From Candidatus Aminicenantes bacterium UBA2190 (lineage in GTDB: Bacteria > Acidobacteriota > Aminicenantia > UBA2199), in contig DCVK01000061.1 in assembly GCA_002335385.1 (NCBI GenBank), forward strand, positions 4,370-68,369: 64,000 nucleotides of DNA, given 5' to 3'. This document shows positions 7,348 through 63,166 of this stretch, one piece after another. The notes under the pieces are model-generated. The model saw only the letters and a program-made list of their open reading frames with translations, was not told the origin of the DNA and made no database searches. The stretch's first letter is position 1. Each line of letters opens with the position of its first letter. Position numbers and translations under genes: made by a program.

Positions 7348-7374
7348 AAAAAGGACCGATTTCATGTAATTGAT

Positions 7375-7501
7375 GTAAAGTCAAAATTGAAAAGTGAATT
7401 GAGAAACTCAAGGGGAAGAAATGTATAGGTGGAATTTATATTATTTTTCTTTGATCTTGCCATTGCGCTTTACATTTCACTTTTCACTATTCACTTTTCA
7501 C
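7375..7501. repeat. Heptad-periodic palindromic intergenic element (locus A)
   Basis: The left arm is GTAAAGT CAAAATT GAAAAGT GAATTGA. The right arm is TTTCAC TTTTCAC TATTCAC TTTTCAC. The arms are roughly complementary (about 14 of 17). The right arm overlaps the pgi stop codon. Confidence 0.7.
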
Positions 7502-9125
7502 TAGGATTCTTGTCTCTGCAATATTCGATCAACGCCCGGGTCGAACCGTCCTCATCGTCGGCGGGCAACTCGCCCTTGATCTTGGGCAACAGGCGGCCGG
7601 CGATCTTCTTCCCCAGCTCCACGCCCCACTGATCGAAGGAAAAGACATTCCAGAGCACTCCCTGGGCGAACACCTTGTGCTCGTAGAGGGCGATCAGCTT
7701 GCCCAGGGTGGCGGGGGTGAGTTCCTCGGCGAGGATGGTGTTGCTCGGGCGGTTTCCGGCGAATTCGCGGAACGGCTGGAGCGCTGCAGGGACTTTCTCG
7801 CGGGCCAGTTCCTCCCGGGTCCTGCCGAAGGCCAGCGCCTGCGCCTGGGCGAACATGTTGGCCAGCAACTGTTCGTGATGATCGCGGAACGGTTCCAGCG
7901 AACGGCGGTAGCCGATGAAATCGCAGGGGACCGCCTGGGTGCCCTGGTGCAGCAGCTGGAAAAACGCGTGCTGGCCCCCTGTGCCCGGTTCTCCCCAGAG
8001 CACCGGCGCGGTCGCGTAGTCCACCTCCCTGCCGCCGCGGTCGACGCCCTTGCCGTTGGACTCCATCTCCAGCTGCTGCAGGAAGGCCGGAAAGAGTCGG
8101 AGGTACTGGCTGTACGGCAGGACGGCATGAGTGGCGGCCCCCATGAAATCGGCGTGCCAGACGCCCAGCAGCGCCAGCAGCAGCGGCAGGTTCTCTCGCG
8201 GCGGCGCGCTGCGGAAATGGCGGTCCATGGCCGCACAGCCGCTCAGCATGTCGATGAAGCGCTCGGGACCGACAGCCATCATCAGCGGCAGGCCGACCGC
8301 CGAGGAAAGCGAAAAGCGCCCGCCCACCCAATCCCAGAATTCGAAGACATTCTCGGCGGCAACGCCCCATGCCAGCGCCGCCTGCGGATGGGCGGTCACG
8401 GCAGCGACGTGGCGGACCAGGGCGGCCCGGTCCTGAAAATGTTCGAGCAGCCAGTCGCGGGCAGCGCCGGCGTTGGCCATGGTTTCCTGGGTGGTGAAGG
8501 TCTTGGAAGCGATGATGAACAGCGTCGTCTCCGGGGAGAGGAAGCGCAGCGTCTCGGACAAGTGGCTGGGATCAAGGTTGGACACGAAATGGACCTGCAG
8601 GTCGCGCTGGGAGTAGAAGCGCAGGGCGGCGCAGGCCATGCGCGGGCCCAGGTCGGAGCCGCCGATGCCGATGTGAACGACATGGCGCAGGGGGCGGCCG
8701 CCATGGCCGATCCAGTTCCCCGAGCGGATGCGTCCGGCGGCGGCGGCCATCTGCTCCCTCACCTCGCGGATGCGCGGCATGACGTCGGCGCCGTCGACCC
8801 GCTGCGGGCGACCGGAAGAATCGCGCAGCGCCCAGTGCAGGGCCGGCCGGCCCTCGGTCTCGTTGACCGCCTCGCCGGCGAACAGTCGCCGGACTTCCTG
8901 CTCCAGGCCGCAGGCTGCGGCCAGGGCGAACAGCAGGTCCAGGGTCTCGTCGTTGACCGGGTTTTTCGCAAAGTCGAGATAAATGCCCTCGGCCTGGAGC
9001 GCGTAGCGCCGGCCGCGCCCGGGGTCGGCGGCGAAAAGGTCGCGCAGGTGCAGCTTCTTCATCCCCACCGCATGCTTTCTCAAGGCCAGCCACTCGGGCA
9101 TCGTCGACCTGCATCGCCGGTTCAT
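7491..9125 (-). CDS. pgi: Glucose-6-phosphate isomerase
   Basis: 544-aa ORF with clear PGI similarity throughout (HLRDLF..D..R, IGIGGSDLGP, WGEPGTGGQHAFFQLLHQGT). A GGGAGAAG RBS lies upstream of ATG 9125. Confidence 0.95.
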   Translation of the reverse strand: MNRRCRSTMPEWLALRKHAVGMKKLHLRDLFAADPGRGRRYALQAEGIYLDFAKNPVNDETLDLLFALAAACGLEQEVRRLFAGEAVNETEGRPALHWALRDSSGRPQRVDGADVMPRIREVREQMAAAAGRIRSGNWIGHGGRPLRHVVHIGIGGSDLGPRMACAALRFYSQRDLQVHFVSNLDPSHLSETLRFLSPETTLFIIASKTFTTQETMANAGAARDWLLEHFQDRAALVRHVAAVTAHPQAALAWGVAAENVFEFWDWVGGRFSLSSAVGLPLMMAVGPERFIDMLSGCAAMDRHFRSAPPRENLPLLLALLGVWHADFMGAATHAVLPYSQYLRLFPAFLQQLEMESNGKGVDRGGREVDYATAPVLWGEPGTGGQHAFFQLLHQGTQAVPCDFIGYRRSLEPFRDHHEQLLANMFAQAQALAFGRTREELAREKVPAALQPFREFAGNRPSNTILAEELTPATLGKLIALYEHKVFAQGVLWNVFSFDQWGVELGKKIAGRLLPKIKGELPADDEDGSTRALIEYCRDKNPSEK

Positions 9126-11667: not shown

Positions 11668-11680
11668 GGCTTGCAGCAAT

Positions 11681-11945
11681 CGGTTTGCGGTTGACGGTGC
11701 ACGGTGTAGGGCAAGAAAAGAAAGCAATAATAAGAATTAACCGCCAAATCCCAAATTCCAATGACCCAATCCCCTAGCGGGGACTTTGACCCAAACGAAG
11801 AGAATGCCCATTTCAAGGGGCTTTCGTTTGGGAAATTGGAATTTGGAGCTTGGAATTTATTTGGAATTTGGTGCTTGAGATTTGGAATTCAAGTCTTACG
11901 ATTGCCTCTTCTCTTCCCGTCAACCGTCAACCGTTTACCGTATGC
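11681..11945. repeat. Nested heptad-periodic palindromic element (locus C)
   Basis: The outer arms are CGGTnnn x4 (11681-11708) and CCGTnnn x4 (11917-11944). The inner arms are CCAAnnn x4 (11744-11771) and a TTGGnnn array (11830-11890). The centre is a perfect 10-bp stem, 11790-11799 with 11823-11832. Confidence 0.8.
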
Positions 11946-11962
11946 CGAGTTCGCAGCGGCGC

Positions 11963-16228: not shown

Positions 16229-16331
16229 TTTGGACATTGGGTCATTGGTGCTTGGAGCCTGCCGGGAATTTGCAGCTTGGAGCCTGGCGCTGTTCTTTCT
16301 GGCCGGCCGCCGTCAACCGCTGACCGTTTCC
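16229..16331. repeat. Heptad-periodic element, right-half type (locus D)
   Basis: TTGGnnn-type units are followed by CCGTCAA CCGCTGA CCGTTTC and abut the mglA stop. It shares an exact 13-mer (in reverse complement) and a 10-mer with locus C. Confidence 0.65.
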
Positions 16332-16921
16332 TAGCCGATCTTGTTCTTGACCTCGGACATGATCAGCTTGGAGATGGCCTTCAGCGTATCGACCACCCCG
16401 TCGCCGCGGTAAGCGACCGCTTCCAGCACCGGCTCTTCCTTCTTCCTCAGGGCGCTGATCAGCTCGTTGGCCGGCGTGACGTTGGGCAGGTCGCGCTTGT
16501 TCAACTGCAGGACATAGGGGATGGTGGAGAAATCGATCTTGTAGTCGCGCAGGTTCTCCAGCATGTCCTGGATGCTCTCGAGGTTGGCCTCGAAGCGCTC
16601 GGTCTGGGAGTCGGCCACGAAGACCAGGCCGTCCACGCCCTTCAGGATGAGCTTGCGCGAGGCGCTGTAGTAGATCTGACCGGGGACGGTGTACAGGTGG
16701 AAGCGCACCTTGTAGTCCTTGATGGTGCCCAGGTCGAGGGGGAAGAAATCAAAGAACAGCGTGCGCTCGGTTTCGGTGGCCAGGCTGACCAGCTTGCCCT
16801 TGTTGTCCTTCTTGATCTTCTCGTAGATATACTTGATGTTGGTGGTCTTGCCGCTGAGTCCGGGGCCGTAGTAAACGATCTTGAAGTTGATCTCGCGCGT
16901 GGAGTAGTTCAGGAATGACAA
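16331..16921 (-). CDS. mglA: Ras-like small GTPase MglA
   Basis: Near-colinear similarity to Myxococcus MglA: MSFLNYSTREINFKIVYYGPGLSGKTTN..., RFHLYTVPGQ, LQLNKRDLP. Confidence 0.93.
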   Translation of the reverse strand: MSFLNYSTREINFKIVYYGPGLSGKTTNIKYIYEKIKKDNKGKLVSLATETERTLFFDFFPLDLGTIKDYKVRFHLYTVPGQIYYSASRKLILKGVDGLVFVADSQTERFEANLESIQDMLENLRDYKIDFSTIPYVLQLNKRDLPNVTPANELISALRKKEEPVLEAVAYRGDGVVDTLKAISKLIMSEVKNKIG

Positions 16922-16923
16922 GG

Positions 16924-17412
16924 TCAGTCTCCAAATATGCGGTCGATGTCCTCGTCGGACACACCTTCGAACGGCGAACCGACCGGCGCCTTGTCGCTGG
17001 ATTTCAGCTTCTTGTTGATGGTCTGGAACACCTTGACCAGTTCCTCCAGGGCGGCACGCACGCGGAACCGCACCAGGCCGAGGTTGGAAGAGTTGTCAAA
17101 GATGACCACCAGCATGGTGCGGTCGTTGATCAGCGAGATATGCAGGCATTCCTTGGAGGACTCGTTGAGCACGGCGGTGAAGTTCTCGATCTTCAGCATC
17201 TGGGCGATGCTGTTGATGGCGGCCACGCTGCCGGCGATCAGGGAAGAGATGGAGTTGAGGTTGACGTCGTCCATCTCTCCGGAAGAAGCGATGCAATGCC
17301 CCTCCGAGTCGGTGATGAAGACGGCCTTGGAGTTGGTGTTGCCCTTCAGCTTGCGGAGGATCTCCTTGATCAGGACATATTCCTCGTTGTAAATGATGAA
17401 ATTTTCTTGCAT
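16924..17412 (-). CDS. mglB: Roadblock/LC7 domain protein MglB (GAP of MglA)
   Basis: 162-aa ORF lying 2 nt upstream of mglA with a Roadblock/LC7-like core (AVFITDSEGHCIASSG...ISSLIAGSVAA). This is the classic mglBA arrangement. Confidence 0.85.
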   Translation of the reverse strand: MQENFIIYNEEYVLIKEILRKLKGNTNSKAVFITDSEGHCIASSGEMDDVNLNSISSLIAGSVAAINSIAQMLKIENFTAVLNESSKECLHISLINDRTMLVVIFDNSSNLGLVRFRVRAALEELVKVFQTINKKLKSSDKAPVGSPFEGVSDEDIDRIFGD

Positions 17413-27928: not shown

Positions 27929-28004
27929 TGGCTCCTCAGGAGGGACTTGAACCCCCAACCTAATGGTTAACAGCCATCCGCTCTGCCGATTGAGCTACTG
28001 AGGA
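27929..28004 (-). tRNA. tRNA-Asn (anticodon GTT)
   Basis: The hand-folded cloverleaf has an acceptor stem TCCTCAG/CTGAGGA, an anticodon loop CTGTTAA and a T-arm GGGGG-TTCAAGT-CCCTC. CCA is encoded. Confidence 0.9.
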
Positions 28005-28264
28005 ACCCGATTGGAATTATAGCATCCCGCTGAAAAAGTGTCAATTGATTTTTTGAGCCCTTGACCCGCCACGGGGGCGGACCGGGAAATCCGCCGGGGC
28101 CGCCCTGCCGACCGCGCGGCGGCAGGACCGGGAAAAAATTATCGCAAGGGGGAATGCTTTTTCCCGGATTTTCTGGAATAATCATCTTTTCGGGAATGCG
28201 AAGCGAGTCCATTGCGCGGAAAAAATCGCCAAAAGGTGCAGCCAACATTAGACTTGCCGATTAC

Positions 28265-28711
28265 ATGGACAGAAAACTGATCTTTTTGGACCTGCAGGCG
28301 GATTCAAAAGAAGAAGCCATCCGGGAGATCGTCGGGCGCATGAAGGAAAACCATGCGATCCGGGATGAAGAATCGGTGCTGGAAGAGATTTTCAGCCGCG
28401 AGTCCCGCGGCGGCACCTCGCCGGGAAACGGCGTCGCCGTTCCCCACGCCCGGGTGAAGACGATCGACCGCATCATCATGGCCATGGCCAGGCTGTCCAC
28501 CGGCGTAAGCTTCTCCGCGGAGGATCGTCAGCCGGTGCGGATCGTGTTCATCCTGATCACCCCGCTGGAAAAACTGAACGAGTACTGGAAGGTCCTGGCC
28601 GGCCTGGCGAAATTCCTGAAGGACCGCAAGCTGCTCAAGCAGCTTCTCGCGGTCGATTCCGTCGAAGCCGCCTGGGAGTTGTTCGACACGCTCGCTCCGC
28701 GGGACCAGTAA
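28265..28711 (+). CDS. ptsN: PTS EIIA type-2 domain protein (EIIA-Ntr / PtsN-like)
   Basis: 148-aa ORF with the phosphorylatable His region GNGVAVPHARV and a LIFLDLQADSKEEAIREI N-terminus typical of PtsN. Confidence 0.8.
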   Translation: MDRKLIFLDLQADSKEEAIREIVGRMKENHAIRDEESVLEEIFSRESRGGTSPGNGVAVPHARVKTIDRIIMAMARLSTGVSFSAEDRQPVRIVFILITPLEKLNEYWKVLAGLAKFLKDRKLLKQLLAVDSVEAAWELFDTLAPRDQ

Positions 28712-28755
28712 GAGAAGCCGGGCCGCCGCATTCCGTCGCCCGCCCCGCCCCGCCT

Positions 28756-28784
28756 TTGGCAAATCGCCCGGAATCGCATATAAT
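28756..28784 (+). promoter_or_regulatory. Duplicated leaderless-type promoter TTGGCA-17-TATAAT, 6 nt upstream of ATG 28791
   Basis: It has the same geometry as the promoter at 35755-35783. It now faces the truncated gene fragment and the NtrC-like regulator. Confidence 0.45.
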
Positions 28785-28790
28785 ATCGCC

Positions 28791-28937
28791 ATGCCGGCCG
28801 AGAGCAAGAAACTTTTCCTGAAACCGCATGAAGAGAAGCGCATCCTCGACGGCGAATTCTGGGCCTACGGCGAAGAAATCCGCATTCAACGGAGGAAAGG
28901 GGCATCCACCATAAATTTGCCGGTTGTCCCTGAGTGA
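28791..28937 (+). pseudogene. Truncated duplicate of the 5' end of the rRNA methyltransferase gene at 35790
   Basis: MPAESKKLFLKPHEEKRILDGEFWAYGEEIR matches MPTEYMKLFLKPHEEKRILDGEFWAYDNEIR at 25 of 31 aa. At nucleotide level 80 of 93 nt are identical, with a 37-nt perfect core. Similarity then ends and a stop follows at 28935-28937. Confidence 0.8.
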
Positions 28938-30295
28938 ACATGGGTGACACGGAGAGATTTTTCCGCTTGAATGTCCTGATCGTGGACGATGAAGCCAATA
29001 TCCGCAAGACGCTCTCATACTGCCTGGAAGCCGATGGAAACAGGGTCATCGCCGTGAGCAATCCGGCGGACGCCGTAAAGGAGGCCCGCAGGCGTTCCTT
29101 CGATCTGGCGTTCGTCGATCTCAAGCTGGGTGAAGAGAACGGCATGGATTTGATCCCGATATTGCTCATGGATTCTCCCTGGATCAAGATCGTTGTCATC
29201 ACCGCGCATGCCTCCATCGAGAGCGCCGTCGAGGCCATCCAGCGCGGCGCCACCGACTATATCGCCAAACCCTTCACTCCGGATCAGGTCAAGCTCATCA
29301 CCCGGAGGATCGGCAGGATCAGAGAGCTGGAAACCGAGATCGCGGTACTCAAGGAGAACATGCAGCGGCTGGGTCCGGAGGATCGGCTTCAGAGTCTGAG
29401 TGCCGGCATGCAAAGAGTCATTGAAACCGCGAAAAAGGCCGCAGCCTCGGAGGCGATCGTCTTGCTTTGCGGTGAAAGCGGCACGGGAAAATCAGTGTTT
29501 GCCAGGGCGATCCACCACTGGAGTCCGCGAGCGGCAAAACCCATGGGCGTTGTGGCTTGTCCAGCGGTTCCTCCCGATCTTCTTGAGAGTGAGTTGTTCG
29601 GGCATGCCAAAGGGGCATTTACCGGCGCAATTCGGGATAATCCGGGACGCATCGCCGCATGTGAAGGCGGTACGCTTTTCCTGGATGAGATCGGCGATAT
29701 GGCTCCTGCCGTGCAGGCCAAATTGCTGCGGTTCATCCAGGACAAGGAATATGAGCGCCTGGGGGAATCGCAGGTACGCAAGGCGGATGTCCGCATCATC
29801 GCCGCCACGAATGCCGACCTCAAAAAGCGCGTAGCCGAGGGTCGATTCCGGGAAGACCTGTTCTATCGGCTGAACGTAATTTGCCTGACGATTCCCCCGC
29901 TTCGTGATCGACCGGATGACATTGTGCCACTGGCCAGGGATTTTCTCAGGCATCTCTGCCAGGCCAACCATAAGGCGATTCTTGGGTTTACCTCCGGAGC
30001 CGAGAAATTCTTGTTAAGCCAGGCTTGGCCGGGAAATGTTCGGGAACTCCGCAACACCATCGAGCGGGTGGTCATCCTGGGCGGCGGCGAATGGATCGAT
30101 TTGTCCGATTTTCCCGAAAAAACGGTTTCCAGCTCCGGCACTCCAGCCCTTGGCGACAAGGTGCCGTTGGCCACCATCGAAGAATTGCACATCAAAAGAG
30201 TCATTGCCAATACCGCCTCACTCCAGGAAGCTGCGGATGTTCTGGGTATCGACCAGGCAACGCTCTGGCGCAGGAGAAGGATTTACGGAATTTGA
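28934..30295 (+). CDS. Sigma-54-dependent response regulator (NtrC family)
   Basis: A receiver domain (LIVDDE...DLAFVDLKL), an AAA+ domain with GESGTGKS and the GAFTGA loop (KGAFTGA), and a C-terminal Fis-type HTH. The start is GTG 28934 or ATG 28940, overlapping the stop of the gene fragment. Confidence 0.92.
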   Translation: MNMGDTERFFRLNVLIVDDEANIRKTLSYCLEADGNRVIAVSNPADAVKEARRRSFDLAFVDLKLGEENGMDLIPILLMDSPWIKIVVITAHASIESAVEAIQRGATDYIAKPFTPDQVKLITRRIGRIRELETEIAVLKENMQRLGPEDRLQSLSAGMQRVIETAKKAAASEAIVLLCGESGTGKSVFARAIHHWSPRAAKPMGVVACPAVPPDLLESELFGHAKGAFTGAIRDNPGRIAACEGGTLFLDEIGDMAPAVQAKLLRFIQDKEYERLGESQVRKADVRIIAATNADLKKRVAEGRFREDLFYRLNVICLTIPPLRDRPDDIVPLARDFLRHLCQANHKAILGFTSGAEKFLLSQAWPGNVRELRNTIERVVILGGGEWIDLSDFPEKTVSSSGTPALGDKVPLATIEELHIKRVIANTASLQEAADVLGIDQATLWRRRRIYGI

Positions 30296-30319
30296 TTCCG
30301 CGTTTTCTTGCCATCCACC

Positions 30320-30359
30320 TTGCAATTCGCAAGACATTTCTTTGTCAGATATTGCAATT
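30320..30359 (+). promoter_or_regulatory. Candidate enhancer (UAS): two TTGCAATT sites 32 bp apart
   Basis: TTGCAATT occurs at 30320-30327 and 30352-30359, and each contains the palindromic hexamer TTGCAA. The sites lie 60-100 nt upstream of the sigma-54 promoter. Confidence 0.3.
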
Positions 30360-30417
30360 TTCAAAGCCCGTCATCCTGGCTGCAAGAATAAGCCAGGGAA
30401 AACGTGGTCCTGATATA

Positions 30418-30432
30418 TGGCACGCCTTTTGC
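30418..30432 (+). promoter_or_regulatory. Sigma-54 (-24/-12) promoter
   Basis: TGGCACgccttTTGC matches the consensus TGGCAC-N5-TTGC exactly. It lies 45 nt upstream of the kinase gene start and directly downstream of the NtrC-type activator gene. Confidence 0.7.
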
Positions 30433-30476
30433 CTGTACTAAGGTGACAACGGTTGCCATTTGGAGGAATGCATCCA

Positions 30477-32309
30477 ATGACGTTAAAGAAAAAGATTCTC
30501 ATCGGGTATGGCGTCGCGTTCGCCCTCATGGTGCTCGTGGTGGCTTGGGCGATAACGAACCTGGTGTCGCTGGGCAGGGCGACCGACGCCATCCTCAGCG
30601 ATAACTACCGCAGCATCCTCGCCGCCGAGAACATGGTGGATGCCTTGGAGCGGCAGGACAGCGGGACGCTGCTCCTGTTCCTGGGCGAAAACGAAAAGGG
30701 GATCGCGCAGTTTCGGGAAAACGAAGCCGTCTTCCTGGAATGGCTGGCCAGGGCGAAAGACAACATCACGATTCAGGGAGAGGCGGGACTTGTCCAATCC
30801 ATCGAGACGAATTACTCGGCTTATCGAAAGCAATTCTCCGCGCTGACCGACTTCAGTGAAACGAACAAAGCGGCCTTGGTGCCCACCCATTATCAGGACA
30901 AAGTCTACCCCCCCTTCATCCAGGTTCGTGAGGCGTGTGTCGGCCTGCGCAACCTCAACGAGGAGACCATGTACGCCGCCAGCCTCGGGGCCGGCGCCGT
31001 GGCCAGGCGCGCGATCTGGTCAACGGCTCTCGTGGCCGCGTCGGCACTGATCGTGGCCTTGATGTTCAGCTTGTTTCTCGCCGAGCGGATTGCCCAACCG
31101 ATCCGCCGCTTCATGGAGGCGTCGCGGAGAATCTCCTCGGGCGACTATTCCGTCCAGGTGCCCGTTAAAACCGACGACGAGCTTGGGCATCTGGCCAGAG
31201 AGTTCAATCAGATGTCCCTTCAGCTTGGCCGCTACCACGAAATGAACTTCGACCAAATCATTGCTGAAAAGAACAAGGGCGAGGCGATTCTCTCGAGCAT
31301 CGAGGATGGCTTGGTGGTTTTCGACATCCAGCTCAAGGTGGCCGGCATCAATCCCGCCGCCCGCCGGATGCTGAAGCTGGAATTCACTGAAAGCTCCTCG
31401 TTACGCTGCATGGACATTCTGCCGGATCAGCAGGTCTGCGATCTGATCCACAAGACAGTCGAGACGGGAGCACAGCCGAACATCCCGGACGAACAACGGA
31501 TTATCGTTCTCCCGGATAATGAAGGTTCCAGGCATTACTTTTTTTCGGTTACGGCGATTCGCGGAAGGGACCAAAAACTGTCCGGCATTGTGCTCCTGCT
31601 CAGGGACGTGACTCGCCTGAAGGAAGTGGAGCGACTCAAGAGTGAGTTCATTATGGCCGCGTCTCATGAGCTGCGCACGCCACTGACCAGCCTGAGCATG
31701 AGCGTGGACCTGCTCATGGAACATGCAACCGGCAATCTGGCTGAAAGGGATCGGGATCTCCTGCAAGCAGCTCACGAGGAAGTCCACCGCATGAAGGAGC
31801 TCGTGAATGACTTGCTTGACCTCTCAAAAATCGAGGCGGGCCGGATCGAACTTGAGTTCGAAAATGTTCCGGTTGCAACCTTGTTCGGGCACGTCGAAGC
31901 GGTTTTCAAAAGCCAGACAGACATGAAACAGGTTTCGCTTGAATCGGCGCTCACCCATGATTCGCTCAAGGTCCGCGCCGATACCAACAAGATCACATGG
32001 GTATTGTCCAATCTGATTTCCAATGCCCTGCGCTATGTGAGCAGGGGTGGCCAGATAAGTCTGAAGGCTCTTCAGATCGGACATCACGTCCATCTCTCCG
32101 TGCGTGATAACGGGCCGGGAATTCCTCTCGAGTATCAATCCAAGTTATTTCAGAAATTCGTCCAGGTGAGAGGGCAGGAATCAAGTGGAACAGGGCTGGG
32201 ACTGTCCATTTGCAAGGAGATCGTGCGCGCTCATGGCGGCACGATCTGGGTGGAATCATCCGCAGGTCAGGGAAGCACATTCACCTTTTCCCTGCCGGTG
32301 GCCCAATAG
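30477..32309 (+). CDS. Sensor histidine kinase (TM-sensor, HAMP, PAS, HisKA, HATPase_c)
   Basis: H-box SHELRTPLTSL, N-box SNLISNALRY and G-boxes RDNGPGIP and GTGLGLSICKEIV, with two TM segments flanking an approximately 170-aa periplasmic region. The start MTLKKK (30477) lies 9 nt after GGAGGA. Confidence 0.9.
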   Translation: MTLKKKILIGYGVAFALMVLVVAWAITNLVSLGRATDAILSDNYRSILAAENMVDALERQDSGTLLLFLGENEKGIAQFRENEAVFLEWLARAKDNITIQGEAGLVQSIETNYSAYRKQFSALTDFSETNKAALVPTHYQDKVYPPFIQVREACVGLRNLNEETMYAASLGAGAVARRAIWSTALVAASALIVALMFSLFLAERIAQPIRRFMEASRRISSGDYSVQVPVKTDDELGHLAREFNQMSLQLGRYHEMNFDQIIAEKNKGEAILSSIEDGLVVFDIQLKVAGINPAARRMLKLEFTESSSLRCMDILPDQQVCDLIHKTVETGAQPNIPDEQRIIVLPDNEGSRHYFFSVTAIRGRDQKLSGIVLLLRDVTRLKEVERLKSEFIMAASHELRTPLTSLSMSVDLLMEHATGNLAERDRDLLQAAHEEVHRMKELVNDLLDLSKIEAGRIELEFENVPVATLFGHVEAVFKSQTDMKQVSLESALTHDSLKVRADTNKITWVLSNLISNALRYVSRGGQISLKALQIGHHVHLSVRDNGPGIPLEYQSKLFQKFVQVRGQESSGTGLGLSICKEIVRAHGGTIWVESSAGQGSTFTFSLPVAQ

Positions 32310-32318
32310 GAGGAACAC

Positions 32319-33044
32319 ATGGAAAAGGATTCCATCCTGGTCGTTGACGATGAGAAGAACATCCGTCTGACCATGTCGCAGTCATTGGAACCACTGGAGA
32401 TTCCAGTCCAGACTGCCGTGAATGGCGAGGAGGCACTTCAGAAACTTCGCAAGACTTCATACAGTCTGGTTTTCCTGGATTTAAAAATGCCTGGAATAGA
32501 CGGGATGGAGGTCCTTCGGCAAATCAAGGACAGCTGGCCCAAAGTCCGGGTAATCATCATCACTGCCCACGGGACGATTGAATCCGCCGTGGAGGCCATG
32601 AAATACGGCGCGGTAGATTTCATTCAGAAGCCTTTCAGTCCCGTTGAGATTCGGGAGTTGGCCACTCGGGTGCTGCGGCGCGAGGCGCTGCTGGAGAAGG
32701 ACGCGTTCGATTATTTCTCCTTGATCGAACTCACCAAAAAATACATCTCAGATCGCGGATTCTCGGCTGCCCGGGAAACCGTTCGGAAGGCCATGGCGGC
32801 GGACCCGACCCAGCCGGAGGCGTACAACCTTCTCGGGGCATTGCATGAAATCAAGGGTAATAGGTTGGAGGCCCAAAAATTCTACCGGGCGTCCTTGGAT
32901 ATCGACTCCTCATTCAAACCGGCCCGAGCGAACCTGGATCGTATCACGTCCTGGGAAAAAAAAGGCAGGATCGATCTCGGTCCCGACAGGAAAACCGCCG
33001 ATTTGCCGGACGAAGGCATCAAGGATGGCGCGGATGAAGAATAA
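32319..33044 (+). CDS. Response regulator receiver domain fused to a TPR-like C-terminal region
   Basis: A CheY-like domain (LVVDDE...LVFLDLKMPG...KPF) is followed by AYNLLGALHEIKGNRLEAQKFYRASLDID, which is TPR-like. An AGGAGG RBS is present. Confidence 0.85.
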   Translation: MEKDSILVVDDEKNIRLTMSQSLEPLEIPVQTAVNGEEALQKLRKTSYSLVFLDLKMPGIDGMEVLRQIKDSWPKVRVIIITAHGTIESAVEAMKYGAVDFIQKPFSPVEIRELATRVLRREALLEKDAFDYFSLIELTKKYISDRGFSAARETVRKAMAADPTQPEAYNLLGALHEIKGNRLEAQKFYRASLDIDSSFKPARANLDRITSWEKKGRIDLGPDRKTADLPDEGIKDGADEE

Positions 33045-33474
33045 CCGCTACATCGTGATCGTGGGCTGCGGCAGGCTGGGATCGCATCTGGCCAACCATC
33101 TCAGTCGTAGCGGCAATTCGGTGGTGGTGATTGATAAGAACGAGCCCACTTTCAAAGACCTGTCGCCAGATTTCAGCGGTTTTCGAGTTCACGGGGATGC
33201 CACGCAGATGGCCGTTCTGAAAGAGGCCAAGGTCAACCAAGCGGATATTCTGATCGCCACCACCCACGAGGACAACGTCAATTTGATGGTGGCTCAAGTG
33301 GCGCAGGGTATTTTCAGGGTTCCCCATGTGCTGGCCAGGGTTTTCGATCCCAAAAGAATGGAGGTTTATGCGCAACTGGGCATCGACACCATATGCCCGA
33401 CATCTGTGGCCGCGGAGATGTTTCTTCAAGCCGTTGCCAATGGCGCGGCCGGACGCAGGGGAGCCAATCCATGA
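33034..33474 (+). CDS. TrkA-N (RCK N-terminal, NAD-binding) domain protein
   Basis: IVIVGCGRLGSHLANHL Rossmann motif in a protein of about 146 aa with no RCK_C domain. The start is 33025 or 33034, overlapping the upstream gene. Confidence 0.8.
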   Translation: MKNNRYIVIVGCGRLGSHLANHLSRSGNSVVVIDKNEPTFKDLSPDFSGFRVHGDATQMAVLKEAKVNQADILIATTHEDNVNLMVAQVAQGIFRVPHVLARVFDPKRMEVYAQLGIDTICPTSVAAEMFLQAVANGAAGRRGANP

Positions 33475-34133
33475 AAGTGCTCATCGTCGGAAGCGGCAAA
33501 ACGCTATATTTTTTATCCCGGAATTTTTCTGCGCGCGGATACCAGGTCGTCATCATCAACCGCAACCCGGAAGAATGTATCCAACTGTCCCGCCAACTGA
33601 CTGCCACGGTGGTTTGCGGCGACGGAAGCGATGACGACATTCTCAAGGATGCCGGCGCCATGGGCGCCGATGCCGTGCTCGCCATCACTCCGAACGACCA
33701 GGACAATCTGGTCATCTGTCAACTTGCCTCCCGCAAATTCAGTGTTCCCAGAACCATGGCTCTGGCCAACGATCCAGACAATGCCGAAGTTTTCGAAAAG
33801 TTGGGAGTCTCGGGCTTTTCCACAACCCACATCGTCGGCAGTCTGATCGAGCAACGGGCCTCCTTGGAACAGATTACCAACTTGTTGCCCGTAGGAGAAG
33901 GCCGGGTGAACGTGACGGAAATCGTGCTTACTGGAGACTCCCCGGTCGTAGGGAAGCTCTTGAAGGATATCGACCTGCCTGAAAACGCCTTGGTGGCCGT
34001 GGTGATCCGCGACAAAAAGCCGATCATCCCCCGCGGAGCCACTGTCATGCTGGCAGGCGACCGAGTCGTACTGATTACACTTCCGGAAAATCATGGTCCG
34101 GTGCTCAAGGCGTTCACCGGCGAACGGTTATAG
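33471..34133 (+). CDS. TrkA/KtrA-like protein (RCK_N plus RCK_C)
   Basis: 220 aa. The N-terminus VLIVGSGKTLYFL has a degenerate GxGxxG motif. The C-terminal TrkA_C-like region is VTEIVLTGDSPVVGKLLKDIDLPE...VVIRD. It overlaps the upstream gene as ATGA. Confidence 0.8.
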   Translation: MKVLIVGSGKTLYFLSRNFSARGYQVVIINRNPEECIQLSRQLTATVVCGDGSDDDILKDAGAMGADAVLAITPNDQDNLVICQLASRKFSVPRTMALANDPDNAEVFEKLGVSGFSTTHIVGSLIEQRASLEQITNLLPVGEGRVNVTEIVLTGDSPVVGKLLKDIDLPENALVAVVIRDKKPIIPRGATVMLAGDRVVLITLPENHGPVLKAFTGERL

Positions 34134-34147
34134 GGGGGGACCGGCCC

Positions 34148-35623
34148 TTGCGAGAGAAAGAATATCTCAAACAGCGCTATTCCTCGATCATTTCCGCAGT
34201 CGGAATGATTCTGCTTCTGTCCAGCGTTATGATGTTGACACCACTTTTAATTCTCATTTCACATCCCGAAGAGGCCATCTACTTGTGGGCCTTCTGTATA
34301 CCCGCGGCCAGTCTTTTTTTTATGGGATTTTTCTTGTGGAAGGCATTCCGTTCTCCACTCAGCATCACGCTCACCGTCCAGGAGGGCGGCATCACGATTT
34401 TGTTGAGTTGGATTGTCGTCATCCTCTTTTCCGCATGGCCGTTTGCATCCGCCTTGGATCTGCCGTATTCACAGGCCATATTTGAATCGGTCAGCGGATG
34501 GACCACCACCGGACTCACGGTCGTGAACGTGGCCAGCACCGGCAAAATGGTTCTGATCTGGCGCAGCATCATCCAATTGGCCGGTGGCGCAGGGTTGGCC
34601 ATCATCATGATGTCGGCCATCGTCGGTCCGGTTGGCGTCGGCATTGCGAGCGCAGAGGGCCGAAGTGACCAACTCGTGCCGCAAGTGAAACAGTCGGCAC
34701 GCCTGGTTCTGATCATCTATGCCGGCTACGCCCTCGCCGGAACCATCGCCTATCGGATAGCGGGGATGTCTCTATTTGACGCGGTCAACCATTCCTTTGC
34801 CGCGATTTCCACCGGCGGTTTCTCCACGCGAGCGGAAAGTATCGGATACTGGGATTCAGCCGCCGTTGAAGCCGTGACCCTGCCGCTTATGCTTCTCGGT
34901 AATCTGAGCTTTGTCAGCGCATGGCTGCTGTGGCACGGCAAGCTGCGCACGGTGGTGCGGAACGGCGAAGTGCGCCTATTGGCCGTGCTCATTCCCTTGT
35001 CGGCCGCGGCAGTGTTCCTCCTGACGAGCCAGGCGCTATATCCCCAGCTCGGAAAATCAATTCGCGTCGCTGTCTTCGAAACAGTGACCGCCATAACCAC
35101 CACGGGCTTTTCAACAGTGAATTACGGCAGTTGGAATTCCGCTGGATTATTCCTGTTGATCCTTCTGATGCTGATCGGCGGCGGCACATGTTCCACCGCC
35201 GGTGGCATCAAGCAATATCGCGTCTATTTGTTCTGGAGGACTCTGCGCTGGGACATCCAGCGCGCCATCATGCCGCGCACAGCGATTTTAGAGCGTTCGC
35301 TCTGGGAAGGGAACCGACGCGTCTTTTTGGACGATGCCCGAATCCGTCAAGTGCTGACTTTCATCCTCATGTATCTCATGACCTATCTGTTCGGCGTGCT
35401 GGTTTTATGCGCCTGCGGCTGCCCTCTCGTCGACTCCCTGTTTGAATTCGCCTCCGCTCTTGGAACCGTTGGGCTTTCCGTTGGCGTCACCAGCGCCGGC
35501 ATGCCGGATGCCGCTTTGTGGTCGGAAATCATTGCTATGTTTCTAGGTCGCCTGGAGTTCATTGTCGTGATTGTCAGTGTCATCAAGATCAGCAGCGATG
35601 TGCGAATTCTGAAAAAAGGCTAG
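34148..35623 (+). CDS. trkH: TrkH/KtrB family cation (K+) transporter
   Basis: 491-aa polytopic protein with repeated selectivity-filter-like motifs (SGWTTTGL, ISTGGFS, ITTTGFS, GTVGLSVG). It has a TTG start. Confidence 0.88.
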   Translation: MREKEYLKQRYSSIISAVGMILLLSSVMMLTPLLILISHPEEAIYLWAFCIPAASLFFMGFFLWKAFRSPLSITLTVQEGGITILLSWIVVILFSAWPFASALDLPYSQAIFESVSGWTTTGLTVVNVASTGKMVLIWRSIIQLAGGAGLAIIMMSAIVGPVGVGIASAEGRSDQLVPQVKQSARLVLIIYAGYALAGTIAYRIAGMSLFDAVNHSFAAISTGGFSTRAESIGYWDSAAVEAVTLPLMLLGNLSFVSAWLLWHGKLRTVVRNGEVRLLAVLIPLSAAAVFLLTSQALYPQLGKSIRVAVFETVTAITTTGFSTVNYGSWNSAGLFLLILLMLIGGGTCSTAGGIKQYRVYLFWRTLRWDIQRAIMPRTAILERSLWEGNRRVFLDDARIRQVLTFILMYLMTYLFGVLVLCACGCPLVDSLFEFASALGTVGLSVGVTSAGMPDAALWSEIIAMFLGRLEFIVVIVSVIKISSDVRILKKG

Positions 35624-35641
35624 ACCCCGGACGGACTGTAA

Positions 35642-35663
35642 GCCAACAAACCGTTTTGTTGGC
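35642..35663 (+). terminator. Hairpin 3' of trkH
   Basis: GCCAACAAA-ccgt-TTTGTTGGC forms a 9-bp perfect stem 18 nt after the stop. The U-tract that follows is weak (gtggtttcc). Confidence 0.4.
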
Positions 35664-35754
35664 GTGGTTTCCACGAAGGACGCTCCAATGGCGACGTCAA
35701 TCGTACTGAACCAATCTCTCCCGAGTCACTAATAAGTCAGTCACCTGAAAACAT

Positions 35755-54759: not shown

Positions 54760-55974
54760 TCAACGGCGCAGAGAGGTATTTTTCAATGCCAGGGCGGCGA
54801 TCGACTCGCCGATGCTGATCGAGGCGGTCGCGGCCGGCGACGGCGCGTTCAGCACATGGACCATGCGTTCCGCCTCGCGGATGCGGAAATCGTCGGCCAG
54901 GAAGCCGTTGGCCTCCAGGGCCTGAGCGCGGACCCCGGCCCCGCCCGGAACCAGGTCAGCGGCCTGGATTTCGGGGAGCAGGCGCTGCAGGGCCTTGACG
55001 AAAGCTCGCTTGCAAAAGGAGCGGTAGAATTCGCCGAAGCCCATTTTCCAGAACTTCAGGCCCATGATCCAGAACCCGGGATAAAGGATCATTTGCGCCG
55101 TGTCGCGCAGGGAAAAGCTCGTCTTGTCATAACCGTGGCGCTTGAAAGCCAGGACGGCGTTGGGCCCCGCCTCCACGCCGCCGCCGATCATGCGCGTGAA
55201 GTGCACCCCCAGGAAGGGGAAGCGGGCATCGGGGACCGGGTAGATCAGGTTGCGCACCAGGCCGTGGCGTGCCGGCACCAGCTTGAAGTACTCGCCGCGA
55301 AAGGGGATGATCTGCAGGCCGGGCTGGACGCCGCACAGGCGCGCGACGCGATCGGACTGCAAACCGGCGCAATTGACCAGGCTGCGGCAGCGCACCCTGC
55401 CGGCGCGGGAGAACAGCAGCAGCTCCGCGCCATCGCGCCGGCAGCCGCTGACCTTGAAATTCAGGCGGATCTCGCCGCCCCCCTTCTGGATGATTTCGGC
55501 ATATTTGGCGCAGACCTGGGCATAGTCGACGATGCCCGTCTCCCCCACCCAGAGCCCGGCGATGCCGGCTACGCCGGGCTCGTACTCCTTCAGCTCAGCG
55601 GGGCCCAGGCGGCGCAGTTTCTGCAGGCCATTGGCGCGGCCTTTCGCCTCGACGGCGTCCAGCGCGGGAATTTCATCCGCCCGCGTGGCCACGACCAGCT
55701 TGCCGCATGCATCGTGGGCGATGCCGTGCTCGCGGCAGAAGCGGTAAAGGGCTTCGCGTCCGGCCACGCAGTTCTTCGCCTTGAGCGATCCCGGTTTGTA
55801 GTAAAGGCCGGAATGGATCACGCCGCTGTTGTTGCCGGTCTGGTGGGCGGCCAGCTTTTCCTCGGCCTCGAGGATCACCACCGAGTTCGCGCCGGCCTTG
55901 ACCAGGGCCATGGCCGTGGCCAGGCCGACGATGCCGCCGCCGATGATCCCCACGTCGTATGTACGCTCGCCCAT
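54760..55974 (-). CDS. lhgO: L-2-hydroxyglutarate oxidase-like FAD-dependent oxidoreductase
   Basis: YDVGIIGGGIVGLATAMAL, HQTGNNSGVIHSGLYYKPGS and a C-terminal VHVLNAPSPAATASISIG are typical of LhgO/YgaF. The start is MGERTYD (55974), 6 nt after AAGGAG. Confidence 0.85.
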   Translation of the reverse strand: MGERTYDVGIIGGGIVGLATAMALVKAGANSVVILEAEEKLAAHQTGNNSGVIHSGLYYKPGSLKAKNCVAGREALYRFCREHGIAHDACGKLVVATRADEIPALDAVEAKGRANGLQKLRRLGPAELKEYEPGVAGIAGLWVGETGIVDYAQVCAKYAEIIQKGGGEIRLNFKVSGCRRDGAELLLFSRAGRVRCRSLVNCAGLQSDRVARLCGVQPGLQIIPFRGEYFKLVPARHGLVRNLIYPVPDARFPFLGVHFTRMIGGGVEAGPNAVLAFKRHGYDKTSFSLRDTAQMILYPGFWIMGLKFWKMGFGEFYRSFCKRAFVKALQRLLPEIQAADLVPGGAGVRAQALEANGFLADDFRIREAERMVHVLNAPSPAATASISIGESIAALALKNTSLRR

Positions 55975-56069
55975 GACTCGCTCCTTTTTATCCATTGTGT
56001 TGCGCTTGCGATTGGAAACAAGGATGGAATATAGCAGAAGCGTTCCGGTGAGTCAAACCCGGTTCGCTC

Positions 56070-56173
56070 GGTGAAAAAGTGAAAAGTGAAAAGTAAAATG
56101 CAAAGAAAAGACTATGGATGAATTTCTCATTGCCTTCTCTTCACCTTTCACTTTTCACTTTTCACATTTCACC
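56070..56173. repeat. Heptad-periodic palindromic element (locus B)
   Basis: GGTGAAAAAGTGAAAAGTGAAAAGT pairs with ACTTTTCACTTTTCACATTTCACC in a stem of about 24 bp with one bulge. The core motifs GCAAAGAAAAGAC and ATTGCCTTCTCTTCAC are shared with locus C. Confidence 0.8.
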
Positions 56174-56202
56174 GGGTCCTGCAGGATAGCCATTTTACTC
56201 GT

Positions 56203-56231
56203 TTGCCCAAGTGGCCCATCTACGGTATAAT
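56203..56231 (+). promoter_or_regulatory. Sigma-70-like promoter TTGCCC-17-TATAAT for the phosphomannomutase gene
   Basis: TTGCCC at 56203-56208 and TATAAT at 56226-56231, followed by a 26-nt leader containing GGAGG. Confidence 0.55.
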
Positions 56232-56257: not shown

Positions 56258-57622
56258 ATGCTGAACGAAGCGATCTTTAGGGAATACGACATCCGTGGCC
56301 TGGCCGCAAGCGAGCTGGCCGACCCGGCGGTGGAGCGCATCGCCATGGCCGTCGCCGCCATTTTCGTGCGCGAGGGGAAAAAAGAGATCGCCGTCGGCAT
56401 GGACGGCCGGCCCAGCTCGCCGCACATCAAGGAGCTGTTCTGCCGCACCCTGGCCCGCTACGGCCTGCAGGTGATCGACCTGGGCCTGGTGCCGACGCCG
56501 GTGGTCTATTATGCCGCCTTCCGCCACGATATGGGGGGCGCCGTCATCATCACCGCCTCGCACAACCCCAGTGAGTACAACGGCTTCAAGATCATGCTCG
56601 GCACCGCCGCCCTCTACGGCGACCAGGTCAGGGAGATCTACCGCCTCGCCGTCTCCGGCCCCTTCCCTTCCGAAACGCAGGGAAGCGTCCGCAAGAAGGA
56701 CATCCTGCCCGAGTACATGCAGTACATCGTGGACAACATCCAGCTAAAGAAAAAGCTGCGCGTCGTCGTCGACGCTGGCAACGGCACCGGCGGCATCACC
56801 GCCCCCGCCCTCTACCGCCGCCTGGGCGCCGAGGTCATCCCGCTGTTCTGCGACGTGGACGGCCGCTTCCCCAACCACCACCCCGACCCGACGGTGGCCA
56901 AGAACCTGCAGGACATGATCGCCAAGGTCAGGGAGAGCGGCGCCGACCTGGGCATCGGCCTCGACGGCGACGCTGACCGCATCGGCGTCGTCGACAACCT
57001 GGGACGCATCCTCTGGGGCGACCAGCTCCTGCTCATCTTCGCCCGCGACATCCTGAAGGACCACCCGGGCGCCACGATCATCTCCGAGGTCAAGGCCTCG
57101 GAGGTCTTCTACAGCGAGGTGCGCCGGCTCGGCGGCAACCCCATCATGTGGAAGGCCGGCCACTCGCTGATCAAGAAAAAGCTCTTCGAAGTGAACGCCC
57201 TCGCCGCCGGCGAAGTGAGCGGCCATGTCTTTTTCAACGACAAGTGGTTCGGATTTGACGACGCCGTCTACGCCGGCGCCCGGCTGCTGGAGATCCTCGG
57301 CGGGTCCGCCGCCAGCCTGGCCGACATGTTCGACGCCATCCCCAAGGTCTGCAATACCCCCGAGATCCGCATCGACGCCGGCGACGACGTTAAGTTCCAA
57401 GTCGTCGACGAGGTGCGCGAACATTTCCGCAAGATCCTGCCGGTGATCGACATCGACGGCGCCCGCGTGCAATTTCCCCGCGGCTGGGCGCTGGTACGCG
57501 CCTCCAACACCCAGCCTGCGCTGGTGGTGCGCTACGAGGCCGACACGCAGGATGAACTGGAGCGCATCCAGGCCCAGGTGGACGCGGTCATCCGCCGCGC
57601 CCTGGTTGCGGCCGCGAAGTAA
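56258..57622 (+). CDS. Phosphomannomutase/phosphoglucomutase
   Basis: The active-site loop TASHNPSEYNGFK, the metal site GLDGDADR and the GEVSGH sugar-binding loop. Confidence 0.92.
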   Translation: MLNEAIFREYDIRGLAASELADPAVERIAMAVAAIFVREGKKEIAVGMDGRPSSPHIKELFCRTLARYGLQVIDLGLVPTPVVYYAAFRHDMGGAVIITASHNPSEYNGFKIMLGTAALYGDQVREIYRLAVSGPFPSETQGSVRKKDILPEYMQYIVDNIQLKKKLRVVVDAGNGTGGITAPALYRRLGAEVIPLFCDVDGRFPNHHPDPTVAKNLQDMIAKVRESGADLGIGLDGDADRIGVVDNLGRILWGDQLLLIFARDILKDHPGATIISEVKASEVFYSEVRRLGGNPIMWKAGHSLIKKKLFEVNALAAGEVSGHVFFNDKWFGFDDAVYAGARLLEILGGSAASLADMFDAIPKVCNTPEIRIDAGDDVKFQVVDEVREHFRKILPVIDIDGARVQFPRGWALVRASNTQPALVVRYEADTQDELERIQAQVDAVIRRALVAAAK

Positions 57623-61847: not shown

Positions 61848-61891
61848 TTATTTTATTTGAATCCTATTGGTTTGTCAATCAGCATGCAGAA

Positions 61892-61996
61892 GACATCTGA
61901 CCCCTGACGTCTAACCTCTGACATCTAACGTCAGGCGTCTACCGTCTGACATCTGACATCTGTCGTCTGACATCTGACGTCTAGGGTCTAACATCT
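61892..61996. repeat. Tandem array of 15 heptamers, consensus GAC(A/G)TCT (locus E)
   Basis: It is exactly 105 nt in register: GACATCT GACCCCT GACGTCT AACCTCT GACATCT AACGTCA GGCGTCT ACCGTCT GACATCT GACATCT GTCGTCT GACATCT GACGTCT AGGGTCT AACATCT. It contains an internal 8-bp inverted repeat, 61903-61910 with 61928-61935. Confidence 0.85.
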
Positions 61997-62000
61997 TCTT

Positions 62001-63032: not shown

Positions 63033-63045
63033 CCGCTCGATCTAT

Positions 63046-63166
63046 CGTGATTCGTGATTCGAAACGGCATGAGGCCGATCCATTGCATCTGCTCGTCACT
63101 TGTCACTCGTCACGGGTCAAAATAGTTCCTTGAGCTTCTTGCTGACACTGACACTGACACTGTCAC
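63046..63166. repeat. Short-period (7-nt and 6-nt) tandem arrays (locus F)
   Basis: CGTGATT x2 (63046-63059), then CTCGTCA CTTGTCA CTCGTCA CGGGTCA (63092-63119), then TGACAC x3 plus TGTCAC (63143-63166). The last array abuts the EF-G-like stop codon. Confidence 0.65.

Follow-up and report, generated by a model that had tools for sequence, protein, structure and literature searches.

The 64-kb stretch of Candidatus Aminicenantes DNA analysed here (hereafter, the window) carries two divergently transcribed genes, lhgO and a phosphoglucomutase/phosphomannomutase (PGM/PMM)-family mutase gene, and the intergenic region between them is occupied by a palindrome built of heptanucleotide repeats (Table 1). 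A preliminary sequence-only reading had named the neighbours lhgO-like and phosphomannomutase genes, and both names agreed with the NF008726 match and the PGM/PMM-family assignment obtained here. Each gene is preceded by a predicted sigma70-like promoter, with the hexamers of both promoters invariant in a four-species alignment and GGTATAAT at the predicted PGM/PMM promoter kept across the clade. The -35 box at 56203, upstream of which the element had been placed, was recovered as part of the conserved plus-strand promoter. The element is flanked by the two -35 boxes, which stand back to back, and by prediction neither transcript includes it, in line with the earlier suggestion that it is probably not transcribed as a 3' UTR.

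The promoter scan returned three promoter-like sites, compared to 0.4 expected. The third match, GTGAAA-17-TAAAAT (9/12), falls inside the left arm of the palindrome (56071-56099, plus strand); its -10 hexamer is changed in the related locus L007, and the match is therefore probably a by-product of AT-richness. CRP/FNR-type TGTGA-N6-TCACA sites and an UP-element were also considered by visual inspection, and no match was seen. No terminator-like site was detected between 55900 and 56330, and the palindrome has no T run. Although a stem-loop is common to the element and Rho-independent terminators, the stem here is AT-rich instead of GC-rich, approximately 48 bp long, lacks a T/U tract, and stands outside the predicted transcription units, between diverging genes instead of downstream of one.

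Table 1. Features of the lhgO-PGM/PMM spacer, other repeat elements of the window and related copies. Positions refer to the window unless a related locus (L number) is given.
Feature	Position	Strand	Remarks
lhgO, L-2-hydroxyglutarate oxidase	54760..55974	-	NF008726, 537 bits vs cut-off 299
Predicted lhgO promoter	56028..56056	-	TTGACT-17-TATATT with TG, 10/12; -35 box ~10 nt from hairpin base
Whole heptad-repeat palindrome	56066..56177		~112 bp, imperfect, AT-rich; from folds and inverted-repeat finder
Left arm	56069..56116	+	GTGAAAA-type units start at 56071, 56079, 56086, 56093, then decay to GCAAAGA / AAAGACT
Left 'core' motif of the sequence-only reading, GCAAAGAAAAGAC	56100..56112	+	inner left stem; unique at 0 mismatches; paired in fold
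Loop, GATGAATTTCT	56117..56127		~11 nt; in part kept in orthologues (CCATGGATG context)
Right arm	56128..56177	+	five TTCACNN units at 56140, 56147, 56154, 56161, 56168, preceded by ATTGCCTTCTC
Right 'core' motif of the sequence-only reading, ATTGCCTTCTCTTCAC	56129..56144	+	inner right stem, by fold
Predicted PGM/PMM promoter	56203..56231	+	TTGCCC-17-TATAAT, 10/12; -35 box ~25 nt from hairpin base
PGM/PMM-family mutase gene	56258..57622	+	
GTGAAAA-type hairpin	7374..7503		between pgi and a decaprenyl-phosphate phosphoribosyltransferase-like gene, both minus strand; closest relative in the window
Locus C	11676..11950		outer TTGACGG/CCGTCAA heptad hairpin, GGCAAGAAAAG / CTTCTCTTCC inner stem; nested ~200-nt CCAAAT/ATTTGG dispersed element; convergent genes
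GACGTCT/GACATCT heptad array	61888..61999		13 units, self-complementary; between queA and purC
Composite short-repeat spacer	63039..63165		CGTGATT and GTCACNN heptads, period-6 CTGACA array; between fusA and queA
CCAAAT/ATTTGG element copies	11735-11900; L018 1-300, 5815-6071; L015 9690-9965; L013 10480-10700		
Palindrome-plus-one heptads	61888-61999; L006 15568-15811, 16847-17060; L009 15475-15671; L013 12409-12586		

The palindrome was delimited in three ways. Strand-neutral alignment placed the hairpin at 56067-56176, folding extended the pairing to approximately 56066-56177 with arms of about 48 nt, and the inverted-repeat finder returned arms at 56075-56116 and 56128-56169 (42 nt, 81% complementary, 11-nt loop). 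Period-7 repetition was detected in the left and right arm by both TRF (56071-56098 and 56140-56172, the latter with 4.7 copies and 92% matches) and a period-7 scan (56073-56105 and 56136-56175). The word GTGAAAAGTGAAAAGT, allowing up to 3 mismatches, occurred 12 times against 0.11 expected, and the palindrome ranks second among the inverted repeats of the whole window. With a GC-content of approximately 0.35-0.42, compared to 0.63 for the window, it forms an AT-rich island. The sequence was identical in five independent metagenome assemblies carrying an identical PGM/PMM protein, which argues against both an assembly artefact and hypervariability within the strain.

The folding energy was far from that of shuffled sequences. 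The RNA fold of the plus strand reached -48.6 kcal/mol, compared to -25.3 ± 3.2 kcal/mol for shuffles (z = -7.3), and that of the minus strand -61.8 kcal/mol (z = -9.3), with 0 of 200 shuffles equal in either case; DNA parameters gave -25.9 and -32.1 kcal/mol for the two strands (z = -6.2 and -8.5). The sequence-only reading had described GGTGAAAAAGTGAAAAGTGAAAAGT (56070-56094) and ACTTTTCACTTTTCACATTTCACC (56150-56173) as reverse complements apart from one bulge. Both sequences are present at these positions and pair with the bulge, but there is one mismatch besides. The proposed architecture of 24-bp arms around a core of about 55 nt, in contrast, understated the palindrome, with its arms of about 48 nt and 11-nt loop: because pairing extends to approximately 56066-56177, the supposed core is mostly inner stem. 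The spacer between the perfect GTGAAAA arrays does measure 55 nt, and arm and spacer lengths vary in the related loci L007, L008 and L011.

The lhgO-PGM/PMM spacer was compared among relatives. The closest GTDB representatives by PGM/PMM protein were UBA2199 (L007) and UBA6072 (L006), with approximately 92% amino-acid identity, and the gene order from the aminotransferase gene to fusA was kept in 16 relatives. Some palindrome was present in the spacer of 9 of the 12 species examinable there. In L007, L008 and L011 it was the GTGAAAA palindrome within the same flanks, the copy in L008 carrying a 21-nt insertion in the right arm; this palindrome is therefore old enough to be common to several species. 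Palindromes of other heptads (GTTAGGC, CGTGACG, CCGTCAA and CCAAAT-type) occupied the same spacer in L006, L013, L014, L015 and L018. No palindrome was found in L010 and L017, with distances of 29 and 50 nt, respectively, from one -35 box to the other.

A half-palindrome was observed in L442, which represents another species (83% PMM identity) and was the sole contig from one metagenome scan that contained the lhgO promoter 22-mer, thus giving no population series. Here the lhgO promoter is joined directly to ATTGCCTTCTCTTCACC..., with the equivalent of window positions 56066-56128 missing (63 nt, or 9 x 7, comprising the left arm and loop). A further TTTTCAC unit is missing as well, and neither of the two predicted promoters is disrupted. 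All indel sizes at the spacer (63, 21 and 7 nt) were multiples of 7. Since the predicted promoters are intact in every state of the spacer, the element appears to be dispensable.

Two further observations concern the regions around the palindrome. The lhgO promoter and 5' leader (55975-56065) differ from those of L442 at 3 of 94 nt, compared to 66% identity at the 4-fold degenerate sites of the PGM/PMM gene, which indicates either strong constraint on the leader or recent recombination of the intergenic region. Between the window and L008, intergenic identity (0.89-0.93) likewise exceeded 4-fold-site identity (0.72).

The element itself appears to diverge at about the level of synonymous sites, with identities of 0.79, 0.89 and 0.74 against 0.86, 0.72 and 0.73 at 4-fold sites. 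Arm complementarity ranged from 73 to 85%, approximately what would be expected from independent decay of the two arms of a once-perfect palindrome. No compensatory double change was found among 35 consensus pairs of four orthologues, a comparison of low power, whereas one-sided changes from A-U to G-U on the minus strand were numerous. The minus strand folds 12-13 kcal/mol better than the plus strand because several of the mismatches are G:U pairs when read on the minus strand. In the strand-neutral alignment of the element at 56066-56177, transition mismatches favoured minus-strand G:U (or G:T) over the opposite by 5 to 2, and the corresponding counts for orthologous spacers were 44 to 26 at lhgO-PMM, 54 to 30 at purC-queA and 29 to 26 at queA-fusA. 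This strand bias is weak, and local GC skew could be its source.

One reading of these asymmetries is a structured minus-strand RNA, either as a long lhgO leader transcribed from an upstream promoter or as a small RNA, with the hairpin acting in stabilisation or processing. The stronger minus-strand fold, the one-sided changes and the G:U counts at lhgO-PMM and purC-queA are all consistent with such an RNA. However, on the minus strand the element precedes the conserved predicted lhgO promoter, and the promoter scan revealed no promoter-like site upstream of the element in that orientation. Furthermore, the bias is modest enough to be caused by compositional skew, L011 and L014 have no minus-strand folding advantage, compensatory changes are lacking in the four-orthologue comparison, and the hairpin is absent or halved in relatives. 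At the gathering threshold, the Rfam search of the window recovered only the SRP RNA and two tRNAs, with no family at the palindrome; at permissive E-values, the best local matches were miRNA precursor models of at most 38 bits, compared to thresholds of 72-211. We therefore regard a minus-strand RNA as very unlikely.

Five heptad hairpins were found in the window, all intergenic between predicted genes, as were those examined in the syntenic block of the relatives. The sequence-only reading had linked the present element to locus C through a shared pair of core motifs. In a comparison covering every one of the 30 intergenic regions in the window, this similarity was at chance level (shuffle p = 0.24 and 0.60), the outcome that the reading itself had named as contradicting the link; the link through the core is thus not retained. 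In the same comparison, the best whole-core match was the GTGAAAA hairpin at 7.4 kb (score 16, p = 0.02); these are the only two GTGAAAA-type copies in 64 kb, and their cores are weakly similar while arm details differ. The motifs noted at locus C sit outside its CCAAAT arms, in the outer host hairpin, and this outer hairpin is the real architectural counterpart of the element at 56066-56177.

The nested CCAAAT/ATTTGG element of locus C, of approximately 200 nt, has a conserved core, CCCAAACGAAAG..CCATTTCAAG..CTTCGTTTGGG, and a mini-hairpin, CCCCnnnnGGGG. Four genomes contained five copies of it in all, spread over four non-orthologous loci and in every case enclosed by a heptad hairpin; it looks like a hairpin-targeting mobile element. 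Elsewhere in the window, a gene block at 28000-35700 has a GC3 of 0.67-0.73, compared to about 0.88 in the remaining part, and encodes a PTS EIIA protein, a sigma54-dependent response regulator, a histidine kinase, a response regulator and TrkA/TrkH; this block may have been horizontally acquired. Adjacent genes for a small Ras/Arf-like GTPase and a Roadblock/LC7 protein at 16331-17412 form an MglA/MglB-like pair.

Heptanucleotide periodicity was strongly enriched in the clade. A census of the window and 80 related loci (1.2 Mb) counted 59 period-7 arrays, compared to 18 and 22 arrays of periods 5 and 6, one each of periods 8 and 9, and none of periods 10 and 11. Arrays of the GTGAAAA type occur in two spacers of the window and in two other spacers of L013, and GTGACGC arrays in four spacers within 8 kb of L013. 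Because a given unit is thus found in different spacers within a single genome, heptad families are dispersed and did not only grow in place.

A similar pattern was observed at the purC-queA and queA-fusA spacers, where most relatives have a heptad-repeat element immediately adjoining the -35 box of the following gene; it was absent from both spacers in L019 and from purC-queA in L016 and L031. The units found there vary by species (GACATCT, AACGTCT, GTTCGAA, GGCATAC, GTAAAAA, GACGTTA and GTGACGC), so that, as at lhgO-PMM, the position of the element is kept while the heptad sequence turns over. At purC-queA in L016 (15525-15808) and L031 (5526-5787), a non-heptad structured element rich in CCCCCC and GGGGGG runs replaces the heptad hairpin. 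Many heptads of the clade consist of a 6-bp palindrome plus one base (GACGTC+T, ACGCGT+G, TTCGAA+G, GCATGC+G and TCGCGA+T), so that one direct array of such units is its own complement and folds back upon itself. Among the hexamers within them, several are classic restriction-site palindromes.

Heptad arrays were also present in loci of Blastocatellia, with inverted pairs in L045, L053, L057 and L064. Among loci of Blastocatellia and other Acidobacteriota (L045, L051, L053, L057, L064 and L066), some hold long palindromes of successive heptad types; the one in L053 (3166-3423), for example, has 80-nt arms composed of GTTTGTG and GTTCAGR units. Aminicenantes are thus not the only members of the phylum with such repeats. 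In IMG/VR, at least about 120 stretches were obtained for four-unit arrays of each of three heptads, GTGAANN and two controls, and 16-24% of the arrays had an inverted partner within 250 nt, compared to 0-8% in the reversed-sequence control. The equal abundance of the control heptads led us to reject the idea that GTGAA heptads are special. A GCAAGAGAAAG / CTTTCTCTTGC 'clamp' that seemed by eye to recur beside arrays is not claimed as a feature after a k-mer enrichment test: the ranking of 6-mers by enrichment was headed by -35 words of promoters and by repeat words of the CCAAAT/ATTTGG type, and the clamp-related words AAGAAA, AGAAAA, ATTGCC and AGGCAA ranked lower with approximately 6-8-fold enrichment, many of their instances being orthologous.

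Heptanucleotide repeats are a known but unexplained class of long simple sequence repeats (LSSRs), including the cyanobacterial STRR and the TAACTGA repeats of Beggiatoaceae and cyanobacteria (PMC4679880 and work reviewed there). The element shares with them tandem 7-nt units in at least three head-to-tail copies, a strongly intergenic location, lineage specificity and an excess of period 7 over neighbouring periods; heptamers are favoured in that class as well, and slippage has been proposed as its origin (PMC4679880). Nearly all TAACTGA repeats, in contrast, form direct arrays a short distance ahead of start codons, with one inverted case reported (PMC4679880), whereas an inverted pair upstream of both promoters is found here.

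A closer architectural counterpart is provided by the class 3 sites of Geobacter metallireducens, which comprise eight pairs of opposite-strand arrays of five MTYCTGA repeats (Aklujkar et al. 2009, PMC2700814). Both are intergenic, multicopy and of no assigned function, with two arrays of about five units of one heptad on opposite strands and a variable spacer. The likeness is architectural only, the unit here being GTGAAAA in another phylum. Further differences are that the arrays of the present element run on into a paired inner stem to make one long hairpin, and that loss, halving and replacement are documented by comparison. Our literature search found no report of such elements for Acidobacteriota.

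Among hairpin-forming extragenic repeats, REPINs are the best studied (Bertels and Rainey 2011, PMC3116915). REP/REPIN sequences and the present element are alike in being short, extragenic and hairpin-forming, with an inverted-doublet arrangement. Both are also species-specific, are represented by several families in a genome, and are not essential at any given site. The element differs in its tandem-heptad arms and in lacking a conserved REP core, a GTAG-type 5' motif and the many near-identical core copies of about 20-40 nt that characterise REPINs. REPs are rare between divergent promoters, where the present element is located. With MITEs it shares small size, absence of coding sequence, AT-richness and inverted ends, but a target-site duplication, a parent IS and a set of near-identical copies are all lacking.

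These resemblances raise the possibility of a non-autonomous MITE- or REPIN-like mobile element, copied by a transposase encoded elsewhere, perhaps via a single-stranded hairpin intermediate. Such an element could explain why the same heptad families occupy several non-orthologous spacers and why orthologous sites are filled, empty or replaced, and the one-strand G:T bias would suit a single-stranded DNA intermediate; the dispersed CCAAAT/ATTTGG element, always found within a heptad hairpin, is a further point in its favour. However, the flanks (...GGTTCGCTC / element / GGGTCCTGC...) contain no direct repeat that would represent a target-site duplication, and the same is true of L007, L008 and L011. 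No near-identical copies were found, and the two GTGAAAA copies of the window share arms with no clearly homologous core. A Pfam scan of 39 window ORFs, covering 64 kb of the genome, revealed no transposase and no Y1 (RAYT) domain. Changes in 7-nt steps also suit slippage more than cut-and-paste. We consider mobilisation of this kind unlikely.

The sequence-only reading had argued from the position between promoters for a DNA-level role, such as cruciform formation, a protein-binding array or a recombination site. A functional element of this type could be a cruciform or an easily melted spacer that buffers the negative supercoiling arising from divergent transcription and insulates the promoters, or an array bound by a regulator. 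Its location exactly between two -35 boxes, its AT-richness in a GC-rich genome, the strong single-strand folding of both strands by DNA parameters and the presence of some palindrome in most examinable species are compatible with such a function. Regulator binding was also proposed, as a guess without a test, for the comparable paired heptad sites of Geobacter (PMC2700814). On the other hand, both predicted promoters are retained in L010, L017 and L442 although none of these has a palindrome, and equivalent elements also stand in tandem and convergent spacers. A stem of approximately 80% complementarity with a bulge, as seen here, disfavours cruciform extrusion, and a repeat period of 7 bp would be unusual for regulators that bind duplex DNA. 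In addition, the heptad differs between species at the same site, and no single recognition sequence is therefore conserved. Taken with these points, a DNA-level function is quite unlikely.

The explanation we favour, with a probability of about 0.58, is that the element represents one copy from a clade-wide set of palindromes in Candidatus Aminicenantes that are made of intergenic heptanucleotide repeats and resemble REPs in lifestyle and SSRs in make-up, and that it is non-essential repeat DNA shaped by DNA-level processes. Two inverted GTGAAAA arrays would fill all the free DNA that separates the core promoters of the two genes. The heptad family probably entered this spacer by spreading, in an ancestor common to several species. 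The comparison of orthologues indicates that 7-nt units were subsequently gained and lost by strand slippage, that point mutations eroded the stem, and that the palindrome has been lost, halved or replaced with the promoters undisturbed. Any effect of the element would be generic, that of easily melted DNA spacing two promoters.

Consequently, the element is most likely not a specific regulator, a terminator or an RNA gene, and it has no demonstrated or required role at the lhgO-PGM/PMM promoter pair. Its place between divergent promoters means that the processes creating it act on DNA without need of transcription. The position thus argues for a DNA-level origin and not necessarily for the DNA-level function that had been suggested.

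Several observations do not fit easily with the favoured explanation. The presence of a palindrome in the spacers of most species, at purC-queA and queA-fusA as well, might reflect selection for a hairpin there, irrespective of its sequence. The element has approximately 35% GC although the 4-fold sites of the genome have 91% GC, which hints at constraint or continual regeneration. Finally, the minus-strand G:U bias and the better minus-strand fold would not be expected of inert duplex DNA, although local GC skew could account for this.

A more far-reaching reading would be that Aminicenantes, and apparently other Acidobacteriota (Blastocatellia), possess a modular heptad-palindrome system. 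Palindromes would be actively seeded into nearly every tolerant spacer against the next -35 box, their arms would turn over while hairpin potential is kept, and they would serve as landing pads for the nested element of approximately 200 nt. We regard such a system as improbable. If true, it would imply an undescribed hairpin-targeted copying process on single-stranded DNA, or a selected role of long AT-rich hairpins as transcription-unit boundaries.

The element is real and ordinary within its lineage, and it probably has little bearing on the biology of lhgO or the PGM/PMM gene. For annotators, the results indicate that such hairpins should not by default be called terminators, small RNAs or regulator sites. 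The origin and function of bacterial heptanucleotide repeats have been open since their first description, as in STRR, LSSRs and the paired sites of Geobacter. The lhgO-PGM/PMM spacer offers a clean comparative series from an uncultured phylum, in which the same promoter pair occurs with a full, half, no or different palindrome, and this series argues for dispensability of the element and for change in 7-nt steps.
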